A stretch of 64,000 nucleotides of DNA. It comes from an uncultured Nitrososphaerota archaeon (lineage in GTDB: Archaea > Thermoproteota > Nitrososphaeria > Nitrososphaerales > Gagatemarchaeaceae). The position numbers and the translations under genes were made by a program. Below, piece by piece: positions 41,677-59,598 of the stretch (positions are counted from its first letter, which is position 1; each line of letters opens with the position of its first letter). The stretch is from positions 1,856,001 to 1,920,000 of the forward strand of contig OY969807.1 in the NCBI GenBank assembly GCA_963703285.1. The letters run 5' to 3'. The notes under the pieces are model-generated. The model was not told where the DNA came from, searched no databases, and was given only the letters and a program-made list of their open reading frames with translations.

Positions 41677-43026
41677 ATGGCAAGGGTCATCCCAGGCGTA
41701 GAGATCAAGGTCGTCAAGGAAATCGTCCCGCAGCAGCTGTATCCGTCGGGCGTTGTGGGCATGATTGGCACGGCGGACGACGGGCCCGTCAACAAGCCGA
41801 CGGGTGTGACGAGCTACAGGGAGCTCGTCTCGATATTCGGGAGCGAGGGTTCGCTCGTCCGAGACGCCAAGCTGGCCTTCCTCAACGGCGTCTTCCAGGT
41901 GTTCGCGACGAGAATCGAAGGGTCGGGCGGCGCCAAGGCGTCCACCACCCTTAAGGGTGCCAAGAACAGGAACACCTTGAGGATAAGCGTCAAGTCGGCG
42001 GGCGAGAGGGGCAACTCGACACAGGTCGTAGTGCTACAGGGACAGCAGGAGAACACGGTCAGGTTCGAGATAACCGACGGTAAGTCCCAGGAGACATTCG
42101 ACAACCTGTCGATGGAGCCCGGCAAGGAGTTCTTCTTGGTGGACTACCTCAACAATAACTCCAAACTTGTGATGGCGGAGAACCTCAACGCCAACCTCGA
42201 GTTCCCCGATAACAACCCCGTCGCGGTCGAGGCCACGCTCTCGGGCGGCATGTCAGCCCCGCCCACCAAGGATGACTACGACGCCGCCCTGCAGATGCTC
42301 GAGATGGAGGCGGAGGTCGACTCGGTCTACGCATGCGATTGCTGGGACCCGGCCGTCCACGCCCTCATTGACGCCCACTGCAAGAACATGAGCACCGACG
42401 CGAAGAACAGGATTGGCTTCGGCACGGTGGGACCCAACGAGAGCGTCGACGACATCATGAAGAGGACCGAGGTCCTGGCGAGCGACAGGTTCGTGGTCGT
42501 GGCGCCCTACGGAGTTGGTGGAGCGGTCGCAGGGCTGATCAGCAAGCTCAGCTACTGGGAGTCGCCCACCTTCAAGGCTCTCACGGGCATCGCGGACATC
42601 GAGAGGCGGTACACACCCTCAGAACAGATGAAGCTGCTCACGTCCGGTATCCTGCCGGTCGACGCCGTTAGGGGACGGGGCATCATCGTCGTCAAGGGAA
42701 TCACCACGAGCAGGGAGCAGATTAGCGTCATGAGGGTCGCCGACCACGCGGTGAGGGGCGTCAAGAACGTCTCGGAAAACTTCATCGGGACACTCAACAA
42801 CGAGCGGGGGAGGGTTGCCTTGAGGGAGGCGATGACCGGCTTCCTGCTCGGCATGTCCAAGGAGGGCTCCCTGGTTCCGTCCGTCGACAACACGAGCCCG
42901 CCGTTCCTCGTTGACGTCTACTCATCCCAACTCGACTTCGCCCAGGGCATAGTGAGGGCAGACGTCGCGGTGAGGCCGGTGCGAGCCATGGACTACATCT
43001 ACGCTACACTGACGGTCGAGGCATAG
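41677..43026 (+). CDS. Contractile tail sheath protein
   Basis: IPGVEIKVV, GMIGTADDGPVNKPTGVTSYRELVSIFG; C-terminal VAVRPVRAMDYIYATL. Confidence 0.92.
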   Translation: MARVIPGVEIKVVKEIVPQQLYPSGVVGMIGTADDGPVNKPTGVTSYRELVSIFGSEGSLVRDAKLAFLNGVFQVFATRIEGSGGAKASTTLKGAKNRNTLRISVKSAGERGNSTQVVVLQGQQENTVRFEITDGKSQETFDNLSMEPGKEFFLVDYLNNNSKLVMAENLNANLEFPDNNPVAVEATLSGGMSAPPTKDDYDAALQMLEMEAEVDSVYACDCWDPAVHALIDAHCKNMSTDAKNRIGFGTVGPNESVDDIMKRTEVLASDRFVVVAPYGVGGAVAGLISKLSYWESPTFKALTGIADIERRYTPSEQMKLLTSGILPVDAVRGRGIIVVKGITTSREQISVMRVADHAVRGVKNVSENFIGTLNNERGRVALREAMTGFLLGMSKEGSLVPSVDNTSPPFLVDVYSSQLDFAQGIVRADVAVRPVRAMDYIYATLTVEA

Positions 43027-43042
43027 GAGGGGGTGAAGACAA

Positions 43043-43444
43043 GTGTCAATGCTAATTGCGGCAAACGCCAGCCAGATAACCATTGACGGAAAGGTCGTCC
43101 CTGGGATTCAGTCCATCGACTTCAAAATAACTAGGAACCGCCAGAACATCCACGCCATAAGCACCGAGGAGAGGCTCGGGGCCTACTACGGCGCGCTCTT
43201 CGTCCAGGGCTCGGTCAAGATAAAGTCAGGATACGACGCCCTCGACAAGAAGATGTACGAGACGATCCCCACACTGAAGTTCTTCCAAATCGTCGTCCAG
43301 CTCCAGCCTCAGTCGGTCGACAAGCCGGTCAAGAAGATCACCTTCGACGAGTGCATCCTGGAGGACAAGACGTTCGCTATGGACGCGACCGGCGTCGCAA
43401 CGACGACCTACAACTTCACAGCGACCAGAATACGCGAAGAGTAG
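43043..43444 (+). CDS. Probable tail tube protein
   Basis: 133-aa beta-rich protein directly after the sheath, ending YNFTATRIREE; SD GGAGG. Confidence 0.7.
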   Translation: MSMLIAANASQITIDGKVVPGIQSIDFKITRNRQNIHAISTEERLGAYYGALFVQGSVKIKSGYDALDKKMYETIPTLKFFQIVVQLQPQSVDKPVKKITFDECILEDKTFAMDATGVATTTYNFTATRIREE

Positions 43445-43451
43445 AGGCGCC

Positions 43452-43820
43452 ACGACGCGCAGGCTAACGAAGGAGGACATCATTGAGGGGTCTCGCGTCC
43501 GCGAGACCGTCTTCCTCAAGGAGTATGGCTCAGAGGTGGTCGTGAGGCCCCTGACCGACGGTGAGCTCTCGCGGATATTCTCGATAGTAGGCCCCATCCC
43601 GCTCCGGCCGGACGGGACTCCCGACCTCGCCAGGGTCGAGGTAGACAAGAACTTCGACGCCCTTCGCCTGGCCGCCTCGATAGGGATGGTCGAGCCGCAG
43701 CTCGACACCAAGGAGGTCGCCGAGATGAAGTTCGGAGTCCCCGAGGCTATAGGGATGAAGATTCTCGAGATAAGCGGCGTCGCTCCTCCGGAGCAGGCTA
43801 AAAAAAAAGACGCGAGATAG
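43452..43820 (+). CDS. Tail assembly chaperone (gpG-like), probable ACG start
   Basis: LTKEDII...EVVVRPLT...VEPQL pattern; ends on an A9 run. Confidence 0.72.
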   Translation, partial: TTRRLTKEDIIEGSRVRETVFLKEYGSEVVVRPLTDGELSRIFSIVGPIPLRPDGTPDLARVEVDKNFDALRLAASIGMVEPQLDTKEVAEMKFGVPEAIGMKILEISGVAPPEQAKKKDAR

Positions 43821-44038
43821 AGGGATTCGCGAGGAGCCCTGAGGGCCAGGAGCTGGCGACTCTCTGCCTAGACCTAGGGTACAAGCTCGCCCCGGAGGCG
43901 CGCGACCTCACCAGGCTCCAGATCGGGTTCCTCATGGCTGCCCTCTCGCTGAGGGCCGAGGCCGCCTCCGTCGCGGAGCTTGCGGAGCAGGGAGTGACCC
44001 GCATCGTCGTAAGGGATGACCTCGGAGGAGAGGGATGA
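43808..44038 (+). CDS. -1 frame extension of the chaperone (gpGT-like)
   Basis: Open -1 frame RREIEGFARSPEGQELATLCLDLGY...DLTRLQIGFL; its TGA overlaps ATG 44035. Confidence 0.7.
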   Translation, partial: RREIEGFARSPEGQELATLCLDLGYKLAPEARDLTRLQIGFLMAALSLRAEAASVAELAEQGVTRIVVRDDLGGEG

Positions 44039-47000
44039 GCAGCCCAAGAGACTCCGGGCGCCTGGCCTCGCTGGCGTCGAGGTTCGCCGCCTTCCTTAAG
44101 GGCCCGAGGGTAGGCCCGGTCGTCGAGAGCACCACCGCCTCTCTGTCCTCCCTGGTGGATCTCGGCGCCCGCCTGGCCTCGCGGGTGTCGAGGAGCGTCG
44201 CGGTGGTGGTCACCGGCCCTCCCTACACGCCGAAGGTGCGGCGAAGGGCCGCTGCCAGAGGTGTCGGCCCGGAGGAAGCCGCTCCGGACATCGAGCTTCA
44301 AACCGTGCCTTCTCAGCAGGAGTCTCCGTCGGGCGGCCCAGGCGGAGAGGATCGCGCCCTCTTCCCCTCCCTGACGAGCCCGATGCAGGCTGCATTTCGT
44401 TCGTTCTCCCAGCGGGGAGGCGGGCCAGCGCCCTCCACAACCGCGTTCCAGCCCGTGCCCGCAGCGGGGTCCTCATCCTCCGCCGCTCAGGGGCCTTCGT
44501 CAACCGGCGAGACCGCTTTTCACGACCTCTCGGCCGACTCAGGCTCGAGCTACCCCTCCTCGCCCGCCGCTACCCTGCTCTCCTTCCAGGGGGCGATGAC
44601 AGGAGCGGCCTCGGCAGCGGCTTCCGTCCTCCAGCAGGCGGTCGCGCCCTCGCCGGTGGGTTACGCGACCGGGGGTGCGGCGATGCCTGCCGTCTCCAAC
44701 GCCGCGGCCCGAGGCGAATCACAGCCGTCGTCGGGCACCGGGGGGCCACCGGCGGGAAGCACCCAGTTCCAGACCAGCCCTCCTGCGCCACAGCCGGGCT
44801 ATCAGGCGTCGACGGCAGTCCAAGCCCCTCCCCCTCCTCCGGCGGGAACCGCGGGCCCGCCCGCCGTACTCAGCACCGCAGCCTTCCGGAGCGTCTCTAC
44901 GGGGACCAGGGCCGTCGCCCCCGAAGCCTCGGGCAGCGCGGCGGAGAAGAGCGCGACGTCCCCGCAGCCGGGCGGTCCCGAACCGCAGAGCCCTCCGCAG
45001 GTCGCGGCGCAGCCCATGCCAAACCCGGCAGCCCCTCCTCCCTCGGGCTTCCCCGGCCAGCCCGCGCAGCAGGAGCAAGCCGTCTCACCGGCGAGCCCCT
45101 CTCTCTCGTCCTCTGCGCTGATCCCTTCGCTCGCTGCAGCCGCGTCGACAAGCTCCGCAGCGGCATATCTGGGGGTCCCTCCCCCGCCAAGCGCCGGACC
45201 CTCCGCTCTCGTCCTTGGGCCCGCGTCTGCCTCGAGTCGCCCGGGCGGAGGGGGGCCGATGCCTCCCAAACCCACGGGGCCGTCCCAGTCCCTTGAACCT
45301 GGCCCTGCCTCTCAGGCCGTCACGACGGAGTCGGCGTTGCGAGAGGCTTCGCAGACCCAGCCGAACCCTCCGCCCGCGCCCGCCACCGAAGAGGGAACCC
45401 CACCGACCATCGAGCGCGGCCCCCCATCCGACGTTGCCCGCTCGCCGGAGGAGCAGCCCGCCGCGGAGTCGGTCCCGGGATTGTCGCCCGCGCCTCGAGC
45501 CCCTCCCATCGGGCTCGAAGCTGCCTCGTCTCGCCATGCCGGTACGGAACCCGTCGCTCTCGAGCTCGGGCCCGCTCCACCTCTGCCGGGTGTATCCGCC
45601 CAACCCTCCCCCGAGCAACAGGGGACCGCTCCGGCTTCTCCAGGGGGTGGCACCACAAGCACAGTCCCCTTCTCCATGGATTGGCGGTGGTCCGCCGCGA
45701 TCGTGCGCATGGCGGCCACGCAGGCACTTCTCTCCTCGTACTTGGGGGGCACCGGTGTATCTCAGGTCCCCCTCGCGCCGCCCGGAGTCCCCCGCGCTGC
45801 CAATGCGAGTTCAGCGGTCCAACCTGAGCCCGCAGCCCCCGCGCCTCCGAGCGACATCGGACCCTCTGCCCCGCCGGGTCCGACTGGTGGGCCGCCTTCT
45901 ACCGAGTCGCCGAGGGGGCCTGAAGAGAGCCCGACCACCCCGCCGATGCCGCAAGCCTCTCCAGCGGTTCCCGAGGCGAGCGGTAGCGAAGTGCTCACGC
46001 CCTTCGGCATCGTCGCCTCCATGCAATCTGCATTCGCCGGTTCGAGAGTCGCTGAGGTGCTCGGAACCTCTGCTGCGGCTCCCCCGTCCCCGCCACCTCC
46101 CGCCGCTCGAATCGTCCCCCCGAGCGCTCCGCCTCCAACGGCGGGGCTTCCATCAGAGGGGTACGGTCCGAGAGCAGCGCCCTTGCCCGCAGAGCTGGCG
46201 GGTGGCAATGCTCCATCAGCGGGCGAATTGGAATTGGGGCTGCGACCCGCTCCACCGCCTAGCGGGTCGGTCCCCTTCCCCTCCCAGTCACGAGAGGCAG
46301 AATCGAGGGCGGCTCCTCCGGCTCCATCGGCTCCGTCGGTCGCGGCCGTCTCCGTCCCCCCTCTCCCAGCGGCCACCCGGGCACCGGTGCCGCCGCAGGT
46401 CCCTTCTGCGACCCCAGCCGCTCCTACAGTTCCCAGCCAGCGGGCGCGGGCCCCCGTCTCTACCGGTGGAGGAGTCGAGCCAGCGGGCGCTCCCGTCGCG
46501 GTGCCTGAGACCCCGGGAGGGCTCGCCTCCCTCTCACGCGTCGAGGTGCCTCCTCCAGCTCCCCCGTCGCCCCGCGGGCCTCCTTCGCCTACGCCAATGG
46601 GGACCACCGTTGTCTTCAGCCCCGCGGCCTTTGAGAGCGCCATTAGGGGAGTGAGGCCCGGAGTTCCGGAGGCGGAGGGGGCGCGTCTGAGGGTGCTGTG
46701 GAAGCTCCGGCGCAGCCGGGACCCGCGCCTCCGCCAGCGCCTCCCGCAGCACCCTCTGGCTTGCCTGGCGCCGGCCCGAGCGGTGCCCTGGTGACTCCTT
46801 CAGCCGCCCAGGCTGTCGCGTATGCGACCAGTCTCGGATTGATGCGCGGATCTCTCGTCTCTCCGCTTCCGCCTCCGGTTCCGCGTGGTTCGTTGGCCCC
46901 GGCGGCGCCCAGGCCGGCCGCCCCTGCCGGCCAGCAGTTGGTTACCGGGGAGAGCCGTGCGCCCGGGGAGCGTGAAGGGTCAGAGAGCGTCTTTGAGCTC

Positions 47001-47153
47001 CCGACGGGCGAGGAGGCACCTCTGGCCGAGGAAGAGCGGCAGCCGGAGTCGAGGGAAGAGAACGGGTCGCGTGATCAGGATGAGCTGTCGGCGATGCGCA
47101 AGACAATCGAGAGACTTTTGCAGGAGGAGCTCCGGAGGTACGGTATCCAATGA
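44035..47153 (+). CDS. Pro/Ala/Ser-rich low-complexity protein at the tape-measure position (two frames, shift near 46647-46700)
   Basis: ORFs 44035-46794 and 46698-47153 share composition; C-terminal helix ELSAMRKTIERLLQEELRRYGIQ. Confidence 0.6.
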
Positions 47154-47228
47154 CCCGTCCGCCCGGGGCTCGCCATTCTATCACACACAAGTGGCTCGGG
47201 CGAACGCCTTGGGAGGGAGGCTTCAAAG

Positions 47229-47978
47229 TTGGACATTAAGCTCGACGACATAGACCTCGTCAAGAGGGTGCAGCCGTCCGCCGCCGGGCCATACACCGAA
47301 ATTCGTAGCGTCACGACTGTCGACGTCGATGACAGGAGAGATGTGGTCGAGATCAGGGTACCAGGGGCCGAAGGGAACGCGCTGCAGGACATGGGGCGCG
47401 AAGCCATCAGGATTAGGGTGGTGGGCGAGATATGGGGCAAGAGCGCCAAGACCACCCTGGAGTCCCTCAAGGACAAGTCGGACGGCGGGGAGGCGGTCTC
47501 GTTCACGTCGGACCTCCTCTCAGCGGCCAAGGTCAGCAACGTGGTCATCGAGAGGCTGCTCATAGACCAGTCGGCGGGAGTCCCGGACCGCTTCAAGTAC
47601 ACCCTCTTCCTGAGGGAGTACAAGGGGGAGACGGAGGAGGAAGGGGTCGAGGAGGGCGAGGAGGAAGAAGAGGCGGAGGAGCCCCCAGACCAGACCGAGG
47701 AGGCGGAGGAGGAGGCCGAGAAGGAGACAGAGGTGGACGACATAAGCGGACAGGTCCTCGACGCAGAGGGCAATCCGGCGCCCCACGTCGCGGTGAAGAT
47801 AGTGGGGCCGGACGGGGAGCGCATCATCATGACCGACGAGGACGGCAAGTACCAAGTCCTAGACGCGCCGGACGGAGAGTACACGGTCTCGGTTGACGAG
47901 GAGGGGTACGAGGAGGAGTCGAAGGTCACGGTCAAGAAGGGGGCCGGCGGGGAGGAGGCACCCCCGGGCGGAGCCTGA
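47229..47978 (+). CDS. Tube-initiator/DNA-circularisation-N-like domain + acidic linker + carboxypeptidase-regulatory-like Ig domain
   Basis: VPGAEGNALQDMGREAIRIRVVG; poly-Glu tract; ISGQVLDAEGNP...TDEDGKY...GEYTVSV. Confidence 0.6.
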   Translation: MDIKLDDIDLVKRVQPSAAGPYTEIRSVTTVDVDDRRDVVEIRVPGAEGNALQDMGREAIRIRVVGEIWGKSAKTTLESLKDKSDGGEAVSFTSDLLSAAKVSNVVIERLLIDQSAGVPDRFKYTLFLREYKGETEEEGVEEGEEEEEAEEPPDQTEEAEEEAEKETEVDDISGQVLDAEGNPAPHVAVKIVGPDGERIIMTDEDGKYQVLDAPDGEYTVSVDEEGYEEESKVTVKKGAGGEEAPPGGA

Positions 47979-47983
47979 CGTGA

Positions 47984-49516
47984 ATGTCGGCGTCGAAGCA
48001 GGTCCAGGCAGATCCGCTGAAGGAGGAGAAGGCCCGGCTCTCTATCCAAATCTCGGAAACCGACCCCAACTGGATTCCCGACGCACGCAACGGTCTGCTC
48101 AAGTTCACAGCGAGGATCTACGCCTTCGTCAACGGCCAGTGGGTTCCCGCGAAGAGGGCGAACCAGATGAAGAAGATTGTCTTTATGTTCGCGGATGTCT
48201 CCAAGGAGAAGGGGGTATGCATGAACTATCCGAAGGATGCGAACACCAACCCCGACCTGTTCTTTGCATGCCCGTGCCCGGACTGCTACAAGAATCAGGA
48301 TCCGAAGATGTCCGAATTCGACTTCGAGGAGGACAAGACCTCGGACCCGGCCTGTGTCGAGAAGATAGTAGACGCGGGCGACAATCCAAAGCACAAGCAC
48401 CATTACCAAAAGGCCACAACGAAGGAGGCGGTCTTCGAGGCCACGGCGGTGGTCCGCTGCGAGGACTTCGGGGCCAACGGCGTCCTGACCGTCACAGCCG
48501 ATGACACCGAAGCAATGACGAGAGGCGACACAGGGAAACCCGCTCACATCGTGACCATCCCGGTCGACGAGAACCAGAACAAGATAGCCGACTCGGCCCC
48601 TCAAGACAAGGACGAGTCTGGGAATGCGGCCAAGGCAGGAGACGACAACGACTCCACCCCCGTCGGGGACGGGACCAAGGGAGACGGGTTCACCAACTAT
48701 GAGGAGTATCGCGGCTTCATCATCTCGGACGAGAGCAGAGGCTCAGGAAAGCTGAGGCACTTCAGGACCGACACCTCGAAGAAGGACCTCTTCATCTACA
48801 ATCCCGACGGCCTCCAGATCAGTCTCTTCCGCAGCGCGTCCGCCCTGGAGATCTGCCTCCTACCGGACCCAGACCTCTTCAACGGCGCCTCGGCCGACAA
48901 CGACACGGGCCCGACCGGGAAGACGCAAATCGTGAACTTCAACCGCGGCTACGCGTCCGGCGGCGACCAGCACGGTCTCAGGCTCGTCAAGGAGACCTCG
49001 GATCCGAATCTCTTCGGTGTCTCCCGGGGCGGTGGTCCGGGCACTCCCAAGGTCGTGAACAGGGTGGCGGTCAACACAGACAACACGCGCGACGCGAACG
49101 AGCCTCCGAACCGGGAGCTGCGCACGGTTGCGCACGAGCTCGGTCACTCCGTGGGGCTGTGGCACCACGGTGAGAAGGAGAAACACGACCACACAGTAAC
49201 GTTCACCGACGGCACCACGGCAACCTACTCGTCCGAGCCCACGGGGGGTCAGACCAGCGGCATTGTAAACTGCATCATGAGGTACGCGAACTTCGCTTCC
49301 CTCTGGTGCCACCCAGACGATAACAACCGTGCATCGCACCACCCTCACTACGTCCCCCGCGTGAACCCGCTGCCGGGCGATAACTACTGCACCGGGACCG
49401 AGGGGACCGAGGTCAACGCGGGGAACGATTTCAAGAACGACGCCACCTCCAACGGGGGATACGGCCGCAGGAGCCGCGGCAAGTGCAGGGAACAGCTGAA
49501 GGTGAAGGACTGGTGA
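47984..49516 (+). CDS. Metzincin-type zinc metallopeptidase (candidate effector)
   Basis: HELGHSVGLWH (HExxHxxGxxH) and a CIMRY Met-turn; no signal peptide. Confidence 0.75.
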   Translation: MSASKQVQADPLKEEKARLSIQISETDPNWIPDARNGLLKFTARIYAFVNGQWVPAKRANQMKKIVFMFADVSKEKGVCMNYPKDANTNPDLFFACPCPDCYKNQDPKMSEFDFEEDKTSDPACVEKIVDAGDNPKHKHHYQKATTKEAVFEATAVVRCEDFGANGVLTVTADDTEAMTRGDTGKPAHIVTIPVDENQNKIADSAPQDKDESGNAAKAGDDNDSTPVGDGTKGDGFTNYEEYRGFIISDESRGSGKLRHFRTDTSKKDLFIYNPDGLQISLFRSASALEICLLPDPDLFNGASADNDTGPTGKTQIVNFNRGYASGGDQHGLRLVKETSDPNLFGVSRGGGPGTPKVVNRVAVNTDNTRDANEPPNRELRTVAHELGHSVGLWHHGEKEKHDHTVTFTDGTTATYSSEPTGGQTSGIVNCIMRYANFASLWCHPDDNNRASHHPHYVPRVNPLPGDNYCTGTEGTEVNAGNDFKNDATSNGGYGRRSRGKCREQLKVKDW

Positions 49517-50403
49517 CCCCTGCGAACCGAGAAGAGGAACCTCCGATTGACGTCTCCTTCAGCATCAATGGGAGCAGGGCTGCATCGGTCAACAGAGACG
49601 AGTCCCTCATCATGTATGTCTCGTTGACCAACTATGAAGCCACATCGGCCGTCCTCAACAACGAGTCCATCAACGCGCGCATCGAAGATTTCAGGAAGGA
49701 GGCCAAGGAGAGGGACATCGACCGAGACGACCTGAACAAGCGGGTGAAGGCGCTCTCGGCGGGCCTGAAGCCGGTCAGGACGTTCAGGTTCGGAGGCAGA
49801 GAGAACTGGACAGCGTTTCTGAAGATTGAGATAAAGAACGGGGAGAGTTGGGTCCCATCTGTTTGGTCCACAAGACTCCTATCCTGGGCTCCGAGGACCT
49901 CCGTGGCGGAGCTGGACTCGGACCGGATCTGCTTCGCGGAGTTGGGCATCGACCCAGAAGAAGTGGAAAAAATCCCGAAGGGTCTCCACGAGGTCAGGGT
50001 CGCTCTCGAGCTCGTCAAGGGATTCAAGACGGTCTCCAACACCGCAATGCTCGAGTTCACAGGCAAGGACACGCCCGCCGAGACAAGGTCCGGAGAGGGC
50101 TTCCTCTTCGCGCTGGGCACCTACTACATGAAGCGCGGTCCGAGGGACCGAGCCATGACCTTCCTCCGGGACGTCAACGCAGCACACCCCGACTACGACC
50201 GGATCGTCGTGTTGTTGGGGGACGTCCTCGAAGCGGATGGGGACCTTAACGGCGCGCTTGAGCTCTACAGGCAGGCGCTCGCATCTTACAGGAAGCGGGA
50301 GCACAACAGGACAGAGGAGCCCGAGGCTCTAGTCGCCCGGATAAACCGGATACAGCTGCGCATAACGGGACGGACGGATGGCGTGGGTCTGGGTGTAAAA
50401 TAA
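49513..50403 (+). CDS. TPR-containing protein
   Basis: LGTYYMKRG..A and LGDVLEADGDLNGALELYRQAL; GTGA overlap with the peptidase stop. Confidence 0.65.
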   Translation: MTPANREEEPPIDVSFSINGSRAASVNRDESLIMYVSLTNYEATSAVLNNESINARIEDFRKEAKERDIDRDDLNKRVKALSAGLKPVRTFRFGGRENWTAFLKIEIKNGESWVPSVWSTRLLSWAPRTSVAELDSDRICFAELGIDPEEVEKIPKGLHEVRVALELVKGFKTVSNTAMLEFTGKDTPAETRSGEGFLFALGTYYMKRGPRDRAMTFLRDVNAAHPDYDRIVVLLGDVLEADGDLNGALELYRQALASYRKREHNRTEEPEALVARINRIQLRITGRTDGVGLGVK

Positions 50404-50425
50404 ATAGCCTCGAGATGAGATTGTC

Positions 50426-51406
50426 GTGGTTATGTCGCGTCCTTCGTATCAGATAAATTTGGGGTCTGCTGCCGTGGAACGCGGGGGCGCAGGTGATCTC
50501 GTTTCTGTACGCGTCTCTACCGACCTGGAGGGCAGGGCCGGCCTCTGCGAACTGGTCGTGAGGGCGAACGACTCGAACCTCGATTTTTCCGTCGGCGATT
50601 CCATGGACGCCTCGTTGGGGTACGTCGACGACACGACCAAGGTATTCACCGGTACGATAGACAGCGTATTCAGGGAGCTCGACTACGACCGCATCGTCTC
50701 TCTGAACTCCGTGGCGAAGCTCCAGAGGTACCGCACGGACAAGTTGTTCGAGAATCAGACCTGCGGCGCCATAGTCACCGACCTTGCGGCCTCTGCGAAC
50801 GCCTCCACCGGAGACGTCCAGGATGGACTCCAGCTTCCCTTCTACGCCGTCGATAGCGCGAAGAACGCGCACGAGCACGTGCTCGAGCTCGCGCGGCGCT
50901 GCGGCCACGAGGCCTACGTCGACGCGGACGACGCGCTTGCGTTCGGGCCATACGAGGCGGATTCCCCCAAACAGTTCGAGTACGGGAAGACCATCATCGC
51001 CGTGACGCGCCTCGAAAGGGGCGCGATCTTCGGCTCCGTCCACGTCTACGGCGAGAGCCCTTCGAGCTCGAAGGGGGCCGATTCTGTGCACTGGCTGACG
51101 AAGACGCCGGTCGACTCCACCAGCGGCGACGGCAATGCGCTGCTCGTGAGCGACGCGGCGGTAAGAGACACCGACACTGCGGGGAGCGTCAGCGATGTCC
51201 TGTTGGCCTCTGTCTCTCGTAACACGCTCCTCCGGCTGAAGACGCTCGGCGACGCGACGGTCGCCCTGAACTCCACGGTGCAGATACTGAGCATGACGGA
51301 CGAAGCTCTGAACGGCGATTATCAGGTAAGGGGAGTGGAGCACCTCTTCAGCAAGTCGAGGGGCTTCACCACGACCCTCTTGCTTTCGGGGACGGGTCAA
51401 GAATGA
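50426..51406 (+). CDS. Baseplate hub protein (P2 gpD / Mu gp44-like)
   Basis: LGY....VFTGTID, LARRCGHEAYVDADDALAF, GDYQVRGVEHLFSKSRGFTT. Confidence 0.8.
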   Translation: MVMSRPSYQINLGSAAVERGGAGDLVSVRVSTDLEGRAGLCELVVRANDSNLDFSVGDSMDASLGYVDDTTKVFTGTIDSVFRELDYDRIVSLNSVAKLQRYRTDKLFENQTCGAIVTDLAASANASTGDVQDGLQLPFYAVDSAKNAHEHVLELARRCGHEAYVDADDALAFGPYEADSPKQFEYGKTIIAVTRLERGAIFGSVHVYGESPSSSKGADSVHWLTKTPVDSTSGDGNALLVSDAAVRDTDTAGSVSDVLLASVSRNTLLRLKTLGDATVALNSTVQILSMTDEALNGDYQVRGVEHLFSKSRGFTTTLLLSGTGQE

Positions 51407-51828
51407 GCGAAGAGAAACCGGTACTCGGCAGAGACCTCAGACTGGTAGAGACGCAGACGGGCGCCGACCTTGCACTCTCCGCGAGCGGAGACCTCGACCT
51501 CGTGGAGGACGAACTGAACCTCGGCCAGGCGATTGTGCACAGGATCAGGACGAGAAGGGGAGAGCTCACCGACATAGGACACAGGAGGTACGGCTCGCGG
51601 CTCTACGACCTGATAGGCGAGCCGAACAACGATACGACGAGGGAGCGCATCAAGGTGCTCGTGAGAGAGGCGCTCGCCCACGAGTCAAGGGTCAAGGAAA
51701 TACTCGGCCTTACGGTGACCCCCTCAAAGGATAGAGCCGACGCAGTGAGCATCGAGATCAGCGTCTCCGCCATCGGCGGCGAGGTCCCACTCAACATAGT
51801 CATGCCCTTCTACCTGGAGGTCGCCTGA
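51403..51828 (+). CDS. Baseplate wedge protein gp25/GPW family
   Basis: NLGQAIVHRIRTRRGEL...YGSRLYDLIGEP...ESRV. Confidence 0.88.
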   Translation: MSEEKPVLGRDLRLVETQTGADLALSASGDLDLVEDELNLGQAIVHRIRTRRGELTDIGHRRYGSRLYDLIGEPNNDTTRERIKVLVREALAHESRVKEILGLTVTPSKDRADAVSIEISVSAIGGEVPLNIVMPFYLEVA

Positions 51829-51829
51829 T

Positions 51830-53446
51830 ACGTCCTCGCCCTACTCCAGGAAGTCCTTCGCGGAGATTACGGAGTCGATACTCGAACAGCTAACCAAGGG
51901 CGTGGTCGACGAGAAGCACGTGTACGACTCGGCGAAGGTGAGGTACAAGCTTGGGACGGACGAGAGGGTGAGGTCGATAGCCAAGGTCGAGGGGACGGTC
52001 AAGGGCAACAGGCACGTCTTCTCGCCCGAATCCGACTACGCGCTCTCCGACAACATGCTCGAGTGGACCTCCGGCGCCAAGCCCGACCAGATGACGCCCT
52101 TCCGCGTAAGCTACTCCTTCGGTGTCCCGTCTCCGATAACGGACGTCAACACGGGGTCCGTCGTGAGAACGATTGTGGAGGCGATAGGGAGGGAGATGGA
52201 GTACCTATACGTCCAGATGGACTACGTGTACGCTTCGGGATTCATCGACACCGCGACGGGGAGCGCCCTCGACCAGGTCGTCGCCATGCTAGGCGCGAGG
52301 AGGAGACCGGCGCAGAAGGCGCGGGGCGCCGTCGTCTTCGGGAGGAAGAACCCGCCCCAGGAGGGGAGCAGCGTAGAGGAGGTCGTCCTGCACGAGGGAA
52401 GGACCGAGTACCCCCTCAAGCAATCTCCCGTGAAGGAGGTGACCTCGGTGCGCGGGAGGACGGCAGGGGCCCCCGTGCAGTTCAAGAAGGGCGTGGACTA
52501 CCGCCTCTCCGGAAACTCGCTGGTCTGGACCCCCGGGGGGACCTCTCCAGAGCAGGGAACCGAGTTCACCATTAACTACAAGACGTTCCAGCAGGTCACC
52601 ATACCACCCGCTACGAAGGTTTCGACCTTCTCCAAGCGCGGAGAAGACGCGGTCGTCTTCCACACCATTGGCACGGCGGCCTTGGGAAGGACGGAGGACG
52701 GCGCGTGGGAGGCGGAGGTCACGGTCGAGGCCGACGAGCCGGGTCAGCGGGGGAACGTCCTTCCTGGGACCGTGACGCTGATGCCGAAGCCGGTGGAGGG
52801 GGTCGAGTACACGATTAACAGGAGAACCATCAGCGGTGGCTCGCCCATCGAGATGGACGACGAGCTCCGTTCGCGGGCCAGGGGGGAGCTCAAGTCCTTG
52901 GGACGGGCTACCCGGACCGCCCTCAAACAGAGGATAGAGAATGTCGACGGAGTCCTCCGCCCCGTCAAGATAGAGGAGCTCCCGATACCCTTCAGCACGG
53001 AGGTTGGAGGGGCCCCCGTGCAGCTCCCCATCCCTGGAGTGGTCCGCGTGATTGTAGACGGCGGCGACATCGAGGAGATAAGGCGCGTCGTGGAGGAGAC
53101 GCGTGCTGCGGGTGTGCTGGTGGAGGTCGTGAGACCGAGGCAGGTCCTGTTGGGCGTCCAGGCGGTCGTGGAGCTCGAACGCAATGCTCGGCTCGAGAAG
53201 GTCCAGGCGCTCATACGGGAGCAGCTCGAGGGCTATGTCGATTCTCTGCAGACGGGAGACACGGTGATATTCAGTCGAGTAGCCTCGTTCATCCTCTCCG
53301 CCGAGGGAGTCCGCGACGTGAAGAGCATCCAGGTCCAGGCGTACCGGGAGGGACAAGCAGCCAGCTTCAACACCAACGTCAGCCTCGCCCAGGACGAGAA
53401 GGCCCGGCTTAGGGACGTCTCAATCCAGCCGGCAGGAGGCCCTTAG
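51830..53446 (+). CDS. Baseplate J-like protein, probable ACG start
   Basis: GSVVRTIVEA, FIDTATGSALD, EPGQRGNV, GGSPIEMDDELRSR; GGAGGT 51816-51821 before in-frame ACG 51830. Confidence 0.88.
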   Translation, partial: TSSPYSRKSFAEITESILEQLTKGVVDEKHVYDSAKVRYKLGTDERVRSIAKVEGTVKGNRHVFSPESDYALSDNMLEWTSGAKPDQMTPFRVSYSFGVPSPITDVNTGSVVRTIVEAIGREMEYLYVQMDYVYASGFIDTATGSALDQVVAMLGARRRPAQKARGAVVFGRKNPPQEGSSVEEVVLHEGRTEYPLKQSPVKEVTSVRGRTAGAPVQFKKGVDYRLSGNSLVWTPGGTSPEQGTEFTINYKTFQQVTIPPATKVSTFSKRGEDAVVFHTIGTAALGRTEDGAWEAEVTVEADEPGQRGNVLPGTVTLMPKPVEGVEYTINRRTISGGSPIEMDDELRSRARGELKSLGRATRTALKQRIENVDGVLRPVKIEELPIPFSTEVGGAPVQLPIPGVVRVIVDGGDIEEIRRVVEETRAAGVLVEVVRPRQVLLGVQAVVELERNARLEKVQALIREQLEGYVDSLQTGDTVIFSRVASFILSAEGVRDVKSIQVQAYREGQAASFNTNVSLAQDEKARLRDVSIQPAGGP

Positions 53447-53448
53447 AC

Positions 53449-54360
53449 TTGCAGCGGACCGCGCGGGTCGCCGAGAGGCTCCCAGAGTTCTATCGCTCCT
53501 GGGACCCAGATAGCGTCCTCTACGGGCTCATCAACGCCTTCGCCAGGTCGCTGAACGAGCAGCAACGGGACCTCTTCCGGATTCCGAGGACCCACTGGGT
53601 AGAGACGGCCCACCTCGCCGACCTCGACGCAATCGGTGCAATCTTCGACCTCCTGCGCTCTCCGGGAGAGACCGACGAGGACTACAGGATAAGGATCAAG
53701 AACGGCATCCAGCGGTTCAAGGGCGGCGGCACCAGGGAATCCGTGATATCGATGATGGCCGCGTTCCTGAAGACGGAGGGAGCCGAGCTCGAGCTGGTGG
53801 AGAACCCCGCCGCCCCGCTCGTCGTCACGCGTTCTGTCGCGGGCGACAGCGAGTGGACCCTCGGAAGCATGGGCGTGGAGGACGCCCCGCCTAGGATGGA
53901 GCTCTCGGTCGTTGACGAGGGCGAGAGGATAGTCGACCCGACCCTGACAGTCAAGGAGACGGGCGCCAGCGTCAGGTTCAGGGGGACCGTCGCCTACGGC
54001 CAGCGCCTGGTCATCGAGGGTGCGCGTGCGACGCTCGACGAGGAAGACGTCTCGGACAGCCTAGAACGGAAGGGCGAGCCCTCCCTCCTCCGGTCGGGGT
54101 CGACCTGGTCCTTCCACGAGGCGCTCTCCTCCCTGGTGGGGAGCTTCGACCGCTCCGTCTTCGATGGCTCCGTCTTCCAGAAGCCCGTGCCTAGGGTCCG
54201 CGTCAGGTTCGATTGGACCAGCAGGCAGCCCTGCGCCTTCGAGCTGGTCGTTCCCCGCCGCGCCCTGGAGAGGAGCCACTCATCGCCGGAGGAGGTCGAG
54301 GGCCTCCTCAATATTATAAGGGCCCAGGGAGTCAGGGCGACCCTAAGAGTCAAGGAGTAG
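53449..54360 (+). CDS. Baseplate wedge/tail protein (gpI-like)
   Basis: LPEFY...LDAIGAIFDLLRSPGETDEDYRIRI...GGT; follows baseplate J. Confidence 0.65.
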   Translation: MQRTARVAERLPEFYRSWDPDSVLYGLINAFARSLNEQQRDLFRIPRTHWVETAHLADLDAIGAIFDLLRSPGETDEDYRIRIKNGIQRFKGGGTRESVISMMAAFLKTEGAELELVENPAAPLVVTRSVAGDSEWTLGSMGVEDAPPRMELSVVDEGERIVDPTLTVKETGASVRFRGTVAYGQRLVIEGARATLDEEDVSDSLERKGEPSLLRSGSTWSFHEALSSLVGSFDRSVFDGSVFQKPVPRVRVRFDWTSRQPCAFELVVPRRALERSHSSPEEVEGLLNIIRAQGVRATLRVKE

Positions 54361-54372
54361 GTGCATCGTTGG

Positions 54373-55023
54373 ATGACAGAGTTTAAACCGAGACCTGCGC
54401 AGCCGGGCGAGCCGATCAAGTCCGAGGACTGGAACTACGTCCAGCAGGGCCTCCTGGACGAGATCCTCGCGCTGCGGGCGCGGTGCGACGACCTCCGGAA
54501 GTACGTCGACAACATGTCCGTCCTCCACACCATGACCAACCTCGAGAGCGCCGAGGGCAAGTCATACGGGCTCGATGAAACGGTGCCCGGCGAGGTGGGG
54601 AACTACGGTGCCGGCGTCGTTGGGCTGATCTCGCGGCAGTGGGTACCGCCCCTGAAGGGGAACGTCGGAATCTGCAGGTTCACCCTGACGAACGCCTTCG
54701 ACCAGCTCGACTTCTGGGCCGGAGCCGAGGGAGGCAACAGGAGGGCCCTCGAAGTCACGCTGAACTACGCGGACGGGACGACAGAGACCTTTCCTGACCT
54801 TTACGTCCACGACAGAGCAGCGCTTGCGCCAGCCGGAGACGACAATCCGTTCGTCGAGTACATCCTCTCTCCCTCGCAGTGGGTCTGGTACCGGTACAGG
54901 TTAGCCAACCCGCACCCGGAGCGCGAGGTCATCTCCGTCTCCTTCGCGAACGCGAGCCCCGAGGCCCGCGGCAGGATCGGAAACGTGGTTCAGCTCCGAG
55001 TCAAGGTCAGACAGCTAGCGTGA
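54373..55023 (+). CDS. Hypothetical CIS-associated protein (fibre-attachment-like N-terminus)
   Basis: PGEPIKSEDWN followed by a short coiled coil and a beta domain. Confidence 0.5.
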   Translation: MTEFKPRPAQPGEPIKSEDWNYVQQGLLDEILALRARCDDLRKYVDNMSVLHTMTNLESAEGKSYGLDETVPGEVGNYGAGVVGLISRQWVPPLKGNVGICRFTLTNAFDQLDFWAGAEGGNRRALEVTLNYADGTTETFPDLYVHDRAALAPAGDDNPFVEYILSPSQWVWYRYRLANPHPEREVISVSFANASPEARGRIGNVVQLRVKVRQLA

Positions 55024-55029
55024 TGGTGG

Positions 55030-55740
55030 ATGCACGAACTCTCTGAACGGGTCGTCGACGTCCTGAAGGAGAGGCTGGAGATTGTCCCGGCACAGAGCAT
55101 CGCGGCGAGGACCCCGGGCGGGAAGAAGGTGCCAAAGCTCCCGTTCGTCTTCGTCTACACGCCCGAGTTCACCTTCGAGGATGCGGGCGTAGGAGGAGGA
55201 AGCGTGCAGGTATCCGAGGAGGTCGAGGACACCCGGGAGGGCAACGGCAAGGGTGCGACCTTCAAGCTGTCGCAGAGGGCCCAGAGGCCGCTCAAGTCCG
55301 TCGAGTCTCCCTCCGGCTCGCAGCTCATCGAGGGGTCAGACTTCACGGTGAACTACGGGACGGGGAGGGTCACCTTCGAGAAGCCGCCGAAGGACGGGGC
55401 GGCCGTCGTCTTCCGCTACCTGTCAGCGGCAAGTGCGGGGAGGACGCGTGCGGTGAGGCTCAGCGTTGTCCTGCACGTCGACGTTTGGGGCGAGGACGAG
55501 GCGAGCGTCGACGACATCGTCCTAGACGTGATAAAGGGGATGGTGCTCTCCCAGGAGGCCCTCACGCGGAGAGGACTAAACCTCAAACCCTCGAAGGGCT
55601 TCATCCTGGGCCAGGAGGACGGCCTCCCCGACGAGATCTTCGCGCAGCGGGTCGTCTACACCGCCGAGACAGAGGTGCAGGCCAGGGAGTCGATCCCGAG
55701 GATTGAGAGCATCGAGGTCCGACAGAAGCCCCCGCTGTGA
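55030..55740 (+). CDS. Probable tail terminator/cap protein with inserted beta module
   Basis: LPFVFVY...LHVDVWGED pattern; insert DFTVNYGTGRVTFEKPP. Confidence 0.5.
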   Translation: MHELSERVVDVLKERLEIVPAQSIAARTPGGKKVPKLPFVFVYTPEFTFEDAGVGGGSVQVSEEVEDTREGNGKGATFKLSQRAQRPLKSVESPSGSQLIEGSDFTVNYGTGRVTFEKPPKDGAAVVFRYLSAASAGRTRAVRLSVVLHVDVWGEDEASVDDIVLDVIKGMVLSQEALTRRGLNLKPSKGFILGQEDGLPDEIFAQRVVYTAETEVQARESIPRIESIEVRQKPPL

Positions 55741-55789
55741 GAGAGATGTACACCGCGAGCGCAACCCCGAGCGAAGCCAGGGCGAGAGC

Positions 55790-56419
55790 ATGAGCGGCAT
55801 CGTCGACTCGATGAGGAAGATAGCTCAGGCCGAGGTGAGGAAGCTGCACCTCTCGGAGCTGGGAGTCGTCACCTCCGTCTTCCCGCACTCCGACGAAGGG
55901 GACAACGACAACTATGAATGCAACGTCAAGCTCAGGGACAGGGACATCGAGCTAAGGAAGGTCCCCGTGGCCACCTCGCAGGTGGGCCTCGTCAACCCCC
56001 CTCACGTGGGCGACCTCGTCCTGCTCGCCTTCGTCAACGGGGACTTCAACTCGCCGATAATCATAGGTCGGCTGTACAACGACGAGGACAGGCCCCCCAC
56101 GAGCCAGAGCGAGGAGGTGGTCTACAAGCCGGCCTACGACAAGAACGCCGACCTGCGCAGGGTCCACCTCGAGCTCCCCGAGGGCGACGTGAAGGTCACG
56201 ATCCAGGACGAGCAGCTGATCCTCCACGTCGGCGAGACGGACGTCACCGTCAGCAAGGAGAGCGTGACACTCGAGACGAAGAAGCCGATCACGATCAAGA
56301 CAGAGGATGACCTCTCGATCAAGGCGAAGAACATCAAGTTCGAGAGCGACGCCGCGACGGAGATCACCGCCTCGGGGAAGATGACCTTGAAGGGAGCGAC
56401 TGTGGAGATCAACCCGTAG
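55790..56419 (+). CDS. Baseplate spike protein (gpV/Gp5 OB-fold, VgrG-like)
   Basis: LGVVTSV, PHVGDLVLLAFVNGDFNSPIIIGRLY; C-terminal beta-helix ending LKGATVEIN. Confidence 0.9.
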   Translation: MSGIVDSMRKIAQAEVRKLHLSELGVVTSVFPHSDEGDNDNYECNVKLRDRDIELRKVPVATSQVGLVNPPHVGDLVLLAFVNGDFNSPIIIGRLYNDEDRPPTSQSEEVVYKPAYDKNADLRRVHLELPEGDVKVTIQDEQLILHVGETDVTVSKESVTLETKKPITIKTEDDLSIKAKNIKFESDAATEITASGKMTLKGATVEINP

Positions 56420-56429
56420 GTGCGGATGG

Positions 56430-56747
56430 ATGCCGAGCGCCGCCAGGCAGACCGACCAGGTGCAGGGGAACTGCGCGCACGGGTGCCCGGTCTGCCCCCA
56501 CCCGGTGGCCGGGATGATAGCCTCGGGCTCTCCGGACGTCCTGATCAACAGCCTGCCCGCGGCCCGAAAGGACGACAAGGGGCTGCACGCCGCGTGCTGC
56601 GCCGCCAACAACTTCACCATCTCCAACGGCTCCGCCACGGTGAAGGTGAACGGGAAGCCCATGGCCCGGGCCGGTGACCCGACACAGCACTGCGGCGGCA
56701 GCGGTACGATCTCGGCTGGGAGCCCCACCGTAATCGTGGGTGGGTGA
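56430..56747 (+). CDS. PAAR spike-tip protein
   Basis: SAAR, GSPDVLINSLPAAR, VNGKPMARAGD, ISAGSPTVIVG. Confidence 0.93.
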   Translation: MPSAARQTDQVQGNCAHGCPVCPHPVAGMIASGSPDVLINSLPAARKDDKGLHAACCAANNFTISNGSATVKVNGKPMARAGDPTQHCGGSGTISAGSPTVIVGG

Positions 56748-57570
56748 AGGCATGCCGGCCCCCGACGCGAACCTGATGTCTCAGCTCGTCAAGGCCAACT
56801 TCCTCTCCAAGGGCATCAAGGTCCCCTCCTCCTGGGACGCGAGCCTGGAGGACAAGTACAACGGGAAGGTCGATGACTTCAAGCCTGGCGTCCCGCGGCC
56901 CACGAACATCTTCGTCCCTCCCAGCGCGGACAAGATAGCGGTGGACGCCTGCAACAAGGTCAGCGAGGGTTTCGAAGGTTTCATCGACGACGTCTGCGGG
57001 GCGGTCTGCGGTTGCTGGAGCACCTGGCAGAGCACGGTCCAGTTCGTCGGGGTAATCATCAACGCGGGGGTCGGGATACTCCCGCCGGGAGGGATGGTCG
57101 GGGGCGGACTGATGGCTGGTCCGATGATCCTCGCCAGAATGAAGCAGAAGGGTGGCAACTACGCCCTCTACGGCAACGCCATCGCCTCCGCTATAGGTCA
57201 AGCTTGGACCGCGTGGGAGCTTGGCTACACGAACCCGGCCCTCCCGTTCCCCGGAGGGATGGTCTGCTCGACAACCATGCCGCCCTCCCCCAACACGCCC
57301 CTCCCCCTGGTGTCGGGGATGTCGCCGGGCGACGCGTTGATGGACGGGGCGTTGCTGAAGCTCTCTATGCTTGGGATGCTGGGTGCCCCCGGCGAGCACG
57401 CTGAGCCGCTTTGTGACTCGGTCGCCCAGGCGTTCGCCCAGCTCTTCCTGACTTGGAAGGGAACCACGATGATTTCGAATGTCCTGGGGGCGGGCGGCGT
57501 CGCCCCTCCTCCTCCCGCCCCTCCGGGTCCCGTCGCGGGTGCGGTGGGGAACGGGGGTAGCTTGGTGTGA
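56740..57570 (+). CDS. Hypothetical Gly/Pro-rich protein coupled to PAAR
   Basis: Overlaps the PAAR stop; repeated WxxW helices. Confidence 0.55.
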   Translation: MGEGMPAPDANLMSQLVKANFLSKGIKVPSSWDASLEDKYNGKVDDFKPGVPRPTNIFVPPSADKIAVDACNKVSEGFEGFIDDVCGAVCGCWSTWQSTVQFVGVIINAGVGILPPGGMVGGGLMAGPMILARMKQKGGNYALYGNAIASAIGQAWTAWELGYTNPALPFPGGMVCSTTMPPSPNTPLPLVSGMSPGDALMDGALLKLSMLGMLGAPGEHAEPLCDSVAQAFAQLFLTWKGTTMISNVLGAGGVAPPPPAPPGPVAGAVGNGGSLV

Positions 57571-57576
57571 ACGCTG

Positions 57577-58362
57577 TCAGGCGTTCTGCACAGGAGGAGG
57601 GGCTTCCGGCGCGGCGTTCTGGGGCTGCGCCGTTCCGCACGAGTAGCAGAACGAGGCAACCCTCGGGAGCTCGGCCCCGCAAGTCAGGCACTTCTTCGTC
57701 GCGATGCCACTGAAGGCCTCCTGCGGGATGCCGCAGTTCCAGCAGAAGGGAGCCTTGACGGGGATGGTGGTGTCGCAGTTCATGCAGAATTTGGTCTCGC
57801 GTCCGACGCCCTGGATGTTTGCCCTCGGCATCATGACCGAGAGCACCAGCGTCATCTTGCCCATGCTGCTCCTGAGGAAGGCGCCCCGTCCCTTGACTAT
57901 GTAGCTGACCTCGAACGTGTTGATTATCCCCTTGTCGCTTGTCTGGATGTACTGCGTGACGTCGACGTTGTCCTTCTTGATGGACCGCAGCTTCCCGGGA
58001 TCCGACGGCATGTCCTTTATCTCGACCATCTCACCGTTGATTCTTATCGCCCTCACCGGATCGAGGTAGGTGCTCCTCGTGTCTGTAAAATCCGCGAAGA
58101 AGGACATCACAACTCGCTCAGGCTGGTTGTACGCCAGCATCACGCTCTTCCTCGCCGGAGGGTGGCCGATCGTCTCGCCCGCCCAGACGACCTTGATGTA
58201 GTCAGCCTTCGGGAGGGGCCCCTGATCCTTCAGGACCGTCTGCTGGACGGGCATCTTCCTGATTGTCTTGACCACGCCCTCCCAGAAGACGACGACGAAG
58301 GTCGCGACTACCCCCGCGACGATCAGCCCTATCACGAGCCACTCCCAGGGTTCGAGGGCCAT
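57577..58362 (-). CDS. Membrane-anchored double zinc-ribbon protein
   Basis: N-terminal TM; CMNC..FCWNCG and CLTCG..FCYSCG. Confidence 0.75.
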   Translation of the reverse strand: MALEPWEWLVIGLIVAGVVATFVVVFWEGVVKTIRKMPVQQTVLKDQGPLPKADYIKVVWAGETIGHPPARKSVMLAYNQPERVVMSFFADFTDTRSTYLDPVRAIRINGEMVEIKDMPSDPGKLRSIKKDNVDVTQYIQTSDKGIINTFEVSYIVKGRGAFLRSSMGKMTLVLSVMMPRANIQGVGRETKFCMNCDTTIPVKAPFCWNCGIPQEAFSGIATKKCLTCGAELPRVASFCYSCGTAQPQNAAPEAPPPVQNA

Positions 58363-59585: not shown

Positions 59586-59598
59586 CAGCCCTGCCTCG

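Follow-up and report, generated by a model that had tools for sequence, protein, structure and literature searches.

A phage-type gene cluster of a Nitrososphaeria archaeon that probably encodes a headless contractile injection system of a pan-archaeal lineage

What kind of machine is encoded by a full set of phage-tail genes that stands, with no head genes beside it, in the chromosome of an archaeon? We addressed this question for an uncultured Nitrososphaerota archaeon (GenBank assembly GCA_963703285.1, contig OY969807.1), starting from a stretch of 64,000 nucleotides (hereafter the window) that covers positions 1856001-1920000 of a single-contig genome of 2.25 Mb (GC 0.61; 96% complete). 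A first-pass annotation, made from the window alone, had read positions 41677-57570 as a stand-alone contractile injection system (CIS) of a TACK archaeon and perhaps a distinct subtype; the host assignment holds, since Methanosuratincola falls in the same GTDB phylum as this genome. Our analysis indicates that the cluster probably encodes an intact, headless CIS of a pan-archaeal lineage, one whose genes are ordered as in the tail of a Mu/P2-type myovirus and which comes with enzyme cargo and a partner protein of its own.

The cluster lies on the plus strand and consists of 17 open reading frames (ORFs) in one tight operon, with gaps or overlaps of 0-100 nt between neighbours. Its list of contractile-tail parts is complete, as had been claimed: sheath, tube, G/GT chaperone, tape measure, hub parts, gp25, J, I, a fibre-like protein, terminator, spike and PAAR tip were all found by family and fold, with hub and spike encoded by separate genes. 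No internal stops occur across the cluster, and its sole frame break is in the tape-measure gene. The structural genes are as follows.

41677-43026 (+): contractile sheath, 449 aa (PF04984 2.1e-17, PF22671 4.7e-7)
43043-43444 (+): tail tube, 133 aa (weak matches: PF18906 0.0043, phrog_365 'tail protein' 0.0016)
43536-44038 (+): tail assembly chaperone pair G/GT (G at 43536-43820, 94 aa; GT to the stop at 44036-44038)
44035-47153 (+): P/A/S/G-rich protein in the tape-measure position, 1039 aa once corrected
47229-47978 (+): hub-associated protein with a Mu gpN / DUF6046-like N-domain and a CarboxypepD_reg beta-sandwich, 249 aa (PF07157 (DNA_circ_N) 2.6e-5, PF19512 1.6e-4, PF13620 2.7e-12)
50426-51406 (+): baseplate hub, P2 gpD / Mu gpP-like, 326 aa (phrog_196 'baseplate hub' 1e-6; weak YQBQ and E217_GP41 matches)
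51403-51828 (+): gp25-like sheath initiator, 141 aa (PF10934 3.7e-8, PF04965 1e-4)
51902-53446 (+): Baseplate J, a gp6-like wedge, 514 aa (PF04865 2.3e-23)
53449-54360 (+): gpI-like second wedge protein, 303 aa (phrog_1160 'baseplate protein' 9.6e-14)
54361-55023 (+): short fibre-like protein, 220 aa, with an N-terminal helix (21-50) and a beta-sandwich
55030-55740 (+): tail terminator or cap, 236 aa (AlphaFold2 model, pLDDT 82.3, and Foldseek)
55703-56419 (+): gpV/VgrG-like spike, at most 238 aa (PF04717 (Phage_base_V) 2.1e-7)
56430-56747 (+): PAAR spike tip, 105 aa (PF05488 4.5e-23)

The arrangement of these genes recurs in relatives: the tube gene directly follows the sheath gene in all relatives mapped, the Mu gpN-like gene comes after the tape measure in the relatives examined (permuted loci excepted), and the gpD-like hub is kept. 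Searches of PDB sequences with the Mu gpN-like protein, the hub and the fibre-like protein returned nothing useful, and for Baseplate J the closest solved sequence was diffocin TRI-2 (1.5e-11). Translation of the spike may in fact start at an internal ATG, the one in the run MSGIV; in other lineages the spike gene lies between the hub and gp25 genes. The 236-aa and 220-aa proteins have no family matches, and we modelled both with AlphaFold2 from alignments of orthologues. Foldseek matched the 236-aa model to the neck of phage 812 (1.5e-9, the best match), the T5 p142 terminator and lambda gpU, and also to the Anabaena CIS cap (7b5i), the PVC cap (9qgn) and the pyocin R2 collar (6u5f), in keeping with its earlier label of 'terminator-like'; a profile search against PDB sequences gave only the RcGTA distal tail protein (E 0.11). 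The 220-aa model (pLDDT 88.5) found weak, generic beta-sandwich matches with TM <=0.41 (Pgp3 trimer, carbohydrate-binding modules, lectins), and its position and shape suggest a short fibre or connector. It is among the most conserved proteins of the system, with 60% mean column identity over 18 orthologues across phyla. The first-pass statement that there is no long tail fibre stands, but this conserved short protein has to be set beside it. We also observed extended hub components in relatives: the hub gene reaches 872 aa in Methanocella (L110:11571-14189, minus strand), where a long helical extension carries apolipoprotein-like repeats, and 821 aa in a Methanomicrobiales genome (L105:11906-14371, minus strand), and in a same-genus relative similar repeats are fused to the Mu gpN-like protein (726 aa).

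The chaperone gene carries the pattern known from phage G/GT pairs, namely a slippery site ahead of the tape measure, followed by an out-of-frame extension that is conserved. The G gene ends in GCT AAA AAA AAA GAC GCG AGA TAG, with nine A at 43800-43808, and the open stretch of the -1 frame measures 78 codons, of which 72 lie past the G stop, and ends in GGATGA, whose ATG is the tape-measure start. An A-run of 9 to 11 A was found at the end of the chaperone gene in 23/23 loci (the window and 22 relatives); of these, 19 encode the conserved extension peptide in the -1 frame and four do so in the +1 frame. A phage-style chaperone, as the first-pass annotation had proposed, is the natural reading: GT would be made by a -1 shift on the A9 run, as in the G/GT arrangement of phage tails. 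The four +1 cases (L021, L026, L110 and L117) could reflect a different slip, transcriptional slippage or homopolymer assembly errors.

The tape-measure gene had been noted earlier as a 'ruler-position' gene and reads in the window as two ORFs (44035-46794 and 46698-47153); the position is upheld but the split is not. The DNA of this gene is 72% GC. In both short-read contigs that cover the site, which come from two runs, an extra G follows position 46676 and yields a single ORF of 1039 aa; the G missing from the assembly belongs to a G-run and falls where both frames are open. Because the read contigs carry this extra G, we attribute the split to an assembly indel and not to decay. The closest relative has a single tape-measure ORF of 961 aa with matching N- and C-termini. 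Conservation is concentrated in the N-terminal ~200 aa and the C-terminal ~50 aa, and lengths in relatives range from 533 to 1124 aa. Given the missing G at 46676, further homopolymer indels may exist elsewhere in the genome.

A phage-like gene order, a chaperone with a programmed frameshift and a broken tape-measure frame could also be read as the marks of a decaying myovirus provirus, or of the tail module of a virus that keeps its head genes elsewhere, and one IMG/VR contig does carry the family. We consider this highly improbable. The frame break is an assembly indel and all other genes are open; the IMG/VR contig holds tail genes and the partner gene only; and the same headless set recurs across phyla at 55-65% sheath identity. 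Searches for four head families (PF05065, PF03354, PF04860 and PF03237) gave no match in any of five genomes, comprising this archaeon's own genome, which is complete, and those of four further carriers, one of them complete too, in line with the first-pass statement that head, terminase and integrase genes are absent. Portal_Mu (PF06074) was likewise missing from the five, in a test whose control was silent too. Capsid matches did appear in 3/19 further CIS genomes, on other contigs or 770 kb from the cluster. The single integrase-family match in the genome (PF00589) lies ~270 kb from the cluster, and direct repeats around the cluster were short and chance-like, with no att candidates. Major capsid, large terminase and att-flanked integrase genes were thus all missing, as was a portal gene within the limit of the silent control. 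The chromosomal setting described in the first pass is also borne out: the left flank, a BBE oxidase gene and a ribbon-helix-helix (RHH) gene, remains adjacent in a relative that has neither sheath nor partner gene. We rejected the RHH gene, which is upstream of the sheath, as part of the system: it belongs to a multi-copy family found in 27/41 genomes irrespective of CIS. The gene itself (40988-41539, plus strand, 183 aa) has a weak NikA/RHH-like N-terminus with Pfam matches below the cut-off, and its family numbers 8 members in this genome and as many as 13 in relatives.

To place the cluster in a wider context, we searched for its sheath and mapped gene order in relatives by tblastn of all cluster proteins on the retrieved loci. 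The sheath had 970 homologues at E<=1e-5, the best 120 of which are all >=59% identical once the query's own record is set aside. Its distribution is patchy: with one genome per species, it was present in 6/22 other same-genus genomes, in 0/18 other genomes of the order and in 11/400 genomes sampled from the phylum, and a scan of genome contigs gave 56 related loci. Sheaths of 55-65% identity occur in Nitrososphaera/Nitrososphaerales, Bathyarchaeia, Methanosuratincola and Hadarchaeota, and equally in Methanoperedens, Methanocella (also in a cultured isolate whose genome is complete), Methanoregula, Methanothrix and Altiarchaeales. Bacterial records numbered three, at 46-47% identity, and among 50,697 phage records ten matched, none with more than 55% query coverage and all below 30% identity. 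The mapped order runs sheath, tube, chaperone, tape measure, Mu gpN-like gene, variable genes, hub, gp25, J, I, 220-aa protein, terminator and PAAR, with the spike gene placed either after the hub or after the terminator; it is permuted in the Nitrososphaera loci and the IMG/VR contig. Because the same order is found in euryarchaeal methanogens, Hadarchaeota and Altiarchaeales, the subtype is not specific to TACK archaea, and by sheath similarity and synteny the lineage appears to be pan-archaeal. The earlier suggestion of a distinct subtype therefore survives relative to the Afp/PVC type, but not as a TACK speciality.

The order is that of the Mu and P2 tails, which runs sheath, tube, frameshifted chaperone, tape measure, Mu gpN-like gene, hub, spike, gp25, J and I, and it is shared with Mu/P2-type myovirus tails and R-type tailocins such as pyocin R2 and diffocin. 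As in R-type tailocins, the tail order comes without capsid, portal or terminase genes, the baseplate is of the simple J/I kind with diffocin TRI-2 as the closest solved J, and the terminator fold is common with the pyocin R2 collar. Unlike R-type tailocins, the archaeal locus has no recognised lysis cassette and no long fibres with their chaperone, the only fibre-like protein being short and highly conserved; it has embedded enzyme cargo genes, PAAR together with a conserved zinc-ribbon partner, and a low-complexity, P/A/S-rich tape measure; and it sits in an archaeal host, with a sheath less than 30% identical to that of any of the phage records searched.

The cluster also shares much with the Afp/PVC type of extracellular CIS (eCIS; dbeCIS/eCIStem), whose reported archaeal members are euryarchaeal. 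Both are headless, with sheath, tube, VgrG-like spike, PAAR, gp25, Baseplate J, cap and toxin-like genes in the locus, and the structural core of sheath, tube, spike, gp25-like protein, J and cap is present here in one locus, the tube by a weak match. The core as defined in the available part of PMC6899500 (Afp1/5, 2/3/4, 7, 8, 9, 11, 15 and 16) is nevertheless not complete, as the first pass had also concluded. The AAA+ ATPase Afp15 is a core component in that part of the paper, and of the 19 PF00004 matches in our genome none is in the window, the nearest being ~74 kb away; no AAA+ ATPase was found in the Pfam-scanned parts of related loci either. The protein in the position of the LysM protein Afp7 matches DNA_circ_N/DUF6046 and CarboxypepD_reg, with no LysM match listed. 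Further differences are the tape measure, which follows the tube here and comes late in the operon in Afp/PVC, the G/GT chaperone of the archaeal locus, and the weak match to solved Afp/PVC sheaths (1.9e-5 and 0.0015). A type VI secretion system (T6SS) is defined by a two-part TssB/TssC sheath, ClpV, TssK and a TssJLM membrane complex. The cluster falls outside this definition: its sheath is a single one of phage type, Pfam scans of the cluster proteins found no Tss family, and no AAA+ ATPase lies nearby.

Three things had been overlooked in the first pass: enzyme cargo in a variable slot, a partner gene and two channel genes. The slot is flanked by the Mu gpN-like gene on one side and the gpD-like hub gene on the other, and we list its occupants with a further protein near the end of the cluster.

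47984-49516 (+): candidate cargo or effector, a metzincin-type metallopeptidase, 510 aa (Reprolysin_5 1.3e-5, below the Pfam cut-off)
49483-50403 (+): TPR protein, 306 aa (TPR_14 4.2e-6)
56740-57570 (+): Gly-rich, partly hydrophobic protein linked to PAAR, 276 aa

The metallopeptidase has both hallmarks of a metzincin: the zinc site HExxHxxGxxH, whose H384, E385, H388 and H394 are invariant in 24 aligned homologues, and downstream a Met-turn-like M432 that is near-invariant in the same alignment. A hydrophobic N-terminal segment is absent, as judged by reading the sequence, and a PDB sequence search found no solved relative. Its 368 homologues are named in Nitrososphaeria, Bathyarchaeota and Methanomicrobiales. 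The TPR protein may act as its adaptor or chaperone: the metzincin/TPR pair is also present in the closest relative, and in the Methanomicrobiales locus L105 it occurs twice in tandem adjoining the cluster, at 40% identity, where both metzincins begin with a PG_binding_1 domain. Other loci hold other enzymes. In a same-genus relative, the slot contains a subtilase and a phospholipase D, and a Methanosarcinales locus has three cargo-position proteins, one of them a phospholipase D, all with PG_binding_1 at the start; this N-terminal domain was thus found in 5/5 scanned cargo-position proteins from two euryarchaeal loci. It may serve to bind bacterial walls, or it may be a shared loading or pro-domain, and we keep both readings. 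No N-terminal signal shared among the cargo proteins was seen. This variation fits a swappable effector slot. The 276-aa protein lies 3' of PAAR in four same-genus loci (64-84% identity) and had no Pfam or PHROG match, and an Atlas search returned only unnamed bacterial clusters with low recognition; it might conceivably be a second effector.

The partner and channel genes are encoded on the opposite strand, immediately beyond the end set by the first pass.

57577-58362 (-): partner protein, 261 aa (DZR 1.4e-8), 7 nt past 57570
58419-60525 (-): two paralogous GLIC-like pentameric ligand-gated ion channel genes, 388 and 308 aa (phmmer)

The partner beta domain is present in exactly the 6/40 relatives that have the sheath and absent from the other 34, so that with our own genome included sheath and partner are found together in seven genomes and both are lacking in 34. 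In distant CIS genomes, the best genome-wide partner match lay on the sheath contig and within 25 kb in 14/20 cases, and in the distant loci mapped the gene either converges on the cluster or immediately precedes PAAR. From this co-occurrence we count the partner as part of the system, which extends to at least 58362 and does not stop at 57570 as first drawn. As predicted here, the protein has seven residues outside, a transmembrane (TM) helix at 8-30, a beta domain of ~150 aa and a C-terminal double zinc ribbon. Its counterparts in distant lineages combine a signal peptide, a variable ectodomain (NHL, fn3, Big_7 or InlB-repeat), one TM helix, a basic stretch, Invasin_D3/Big_1 and DZR. In the Bathyarchaeia genome L108 (G444:C15:48000-58000), four partner-type zinc-ribbon matches stand in tandem downstream of the cluster, and the one partner-type protein extracted there, of 817 aa, has an NHL-propeller ectodomain; the tandem copies suggest diversification of the outward-facing part. 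That a membrane component is lacking holds for TssJLM of the T6SS only, since a conserved partner gene, its product apparently membrane-anchored in most lineages, lies just past the end set by the first pass.

Linkage of a CIS to a conserved membrane protein has a precedent in the T6SS-like CIS of Halogeometricum borinquense (clade IIa), where, in the available text of PMC11566945, such a protein is encoded at the locus and proposed as an anchor. That system, too, is archaeal and carries effector genes inside its cluster, but as far as that text goes its structural genes are cis1-16 homologues of eCIS type, whereas ours are of phage type. Its anchor is described there as having six TM helices and a cytoplasmic domain of ~150 residues, unlike the partner here, which crosses the membrane once or is anchored by its N-terminus and combines an Ig-like domain with a double zinc ribbon. 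By homology with phage tails, the machine may be assembled from a simple baseplate consisting of a hub (Mu gpN-like protein, gpD-like hub, gpV spike and PAAR) and wedges (gp25, J and I). A tape measure held by the G/GT pair that arises from the A-run shift would set the length of the tube, the sheath would polymerise round it, and the terminator would cap the end. A trigger would then cause the sheath to contract and drive out tube and spike. The variable slot would hold the payload genes, here metzincin and TPR partner and in relatives subtilase, phospholipase D or PG_binding_1 enzymes. Because the payload slot holds hydrolytic enzymes, the machine most likely delivers such enzymes into or onto neighbouring cells, possibly bacteria. 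If the partner couples the baseplate end to the cell membrane, firing would be contact-dependent, as in a T6SS. We put this forward tentatively, at somewhat less than an even chance.

The next candidate, which we regard as rather unlikely though still a serious contender, is a released particle, in effect an archaeal R-type tailocin or eCIS-like device that acts from outside, with the partner serving in regulation, release or immunity. Much of the cluster is what such a particle would need: the order, sheath, tube, G/GT pair and tape measure are of phage type, the terminator fold is common to pyocin R2 and the PVC cap, Baseplate J is closest to diffocin TRI-2, a short fibre-like protein follows gpI, and no TM helix is seen in the partner of three loci, from two Nitrososphaera genomes and the IMG/VR contig. 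Other features speak against a released particle. General family scans of the window proteins turned up no lysis-like family; we know of no archaeal release factors. Receptor-binding fibres usually vary, unlike the fibre-like protein here, which keeps its 60% mean column identity across phyla. The enzyme cargo genes embedded in the cluster also set it apart from the cargo-less pyocins, and the partner appears to be a membrane protein in most lineages.

A membrane protein near the cluster would be compatible, too, with a free cytoplasmic CIS of the Streptomyces kind, turned on the cell itself in stress-induced death or lysis, with the partner and the ligand-gated channels as triggers. Here, as there, a secretion-type membrane complex is lacking, and no recycling ATPase was found; in the available text of PMC12237407, the function of the Streptomyces system, including firing, depends on one accessory membrane protein, CisA. 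That system is bacterial with an eCIS-lineage gene set, and the likeness of CisA to our partner is one of description only, taken from that text. The two channel genes, which precede the partner gene on its own strand and apparently share an operon with it, would suit such triggering. By phmmer they match chains of GLIC and the GABA-A receptor over their full length (8e-9 to 1e-5), and they have weak Neur_chan Pfam matches; the 308-type gene adjoins the partner gene in all six CIS-positive same-genus genomes, and close orthologues of the 388-type gene (55-83% identity) are confined to those six. No channel-gene matches were found in distant loci, which makes this association one at the level of the genus. 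PAAR and the PG_binding_1 enzyme cargo, however, point to foreign targets, and the large, variable partner ectodomains suggest outward recognition, so that we find a self-directed machine improbable.

A more elaborate version of membrane-coupled firing would bring in the partner ectodomains and the channels. A single-pass protein with a variable ectodomain (NHL or PQQ-like propellers, Ig/fn3) and a cytoplasmic Ig-like domain with a double zinc ribbon would dock the baseplate/PAAR end and sense a neighbour, the channels would add a chemical trigger, and metzincin, phospholipase D or subtilase, some with peptidoglycan-binding domains, would be fired into bacteria. As a whole we think such a receptor-coupled injection system unlikely; if real, it would be a contact- or ligand-gated archaeal weapon against bacteria, derived from a phage tail independently of the T6SS and of Afp-type eCIS. 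A complex prediction that combined the fibre-like protein and PAAR with the partner's cytoplasmic part returned a score of 0.00 in a run without controls, and hence no verdict.

Several points weigh against our preferred reading of an intact CIS with enzyme cargo and a membrane-coupling partner. The system is known here from its genes alone, and the tube and hub were assigned from weak scores and position. The protein in the tape-measure position is of low complexity and P/A/S-rich, unlike known helical tape measures, and the read contigs that restore its frame may stem from the sample used for the genome assembly. Loading and substrate of the metzincin are deduced from gene position and motif, and PG_binding_1 is a pro-domain in matrix metalloproteinases, so it does not imply a cell-wall target. 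The topology of the partner was read from hydropathy and charge, not with a dedicated predictor; the three loci in which it has no TM helix mean that membrane anchoring is not universal; and its conserved part might just as well act in regulation or assembly. We nonetheless hold that the cluster probably encodes such a system.

Elsewhere in the window, we noted an Rfam match to RF00029 (group II intron) at 26207-26306 on the minus strand (57 bits), adjoined by an ORF of 599 aa (26361-28160, minus strand) that we assume to be a reverse transcriptase; around the intron, at 26-30 kb, GC dips to 0.54-0.55. No tRNA genes were found in the window. With standard settings, ARAGORN reported only 16 tRNA genes in the 2.25 Mb, several with odd anticodon loops, a low count that probably reflects intron-containing archaeal tRNAs. 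A search for amoA (PF12942) gave no match, with a control that was also silent.

To our knowledge, little is known about how archaea fight or communicate with their neighbours. In the literature that we searched, the only archaeal CIS with experimental evidence is the haloarchaeal one of eCIS type, as presented in the available text of PMC11566945. We found no published description of the present gene set in that literature, a search that did not extend to the supplementary tables of PMC8213781 and PMC6899500. In the papers searched, such loci are lumped as 'eCIS' or 'PLTS' or given only as sheath homologues: TACK sheath homologues are listed in PMC9230969, and the ANME 'PLTS' types of PMC9012536 and PMC12180501 may overlap with the lineage. 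The locus would document a second archaeal CIS lineage, of phage type, with a swappable enzyme payload and a membrane partner of its own. The lineage spans Nitrososphaeria, Bathyarchaeia, Methanomethylicia, Hadarchaeota and several methanogen orders, among them abundant archaea of soil and sediment. It offers a conserved A-run recoding site in archaea and a small chassis of 13 genes that could be expressed heterologously, and through it archaeal antagonism, perhaps directed at bacteria, becomes open to testing.

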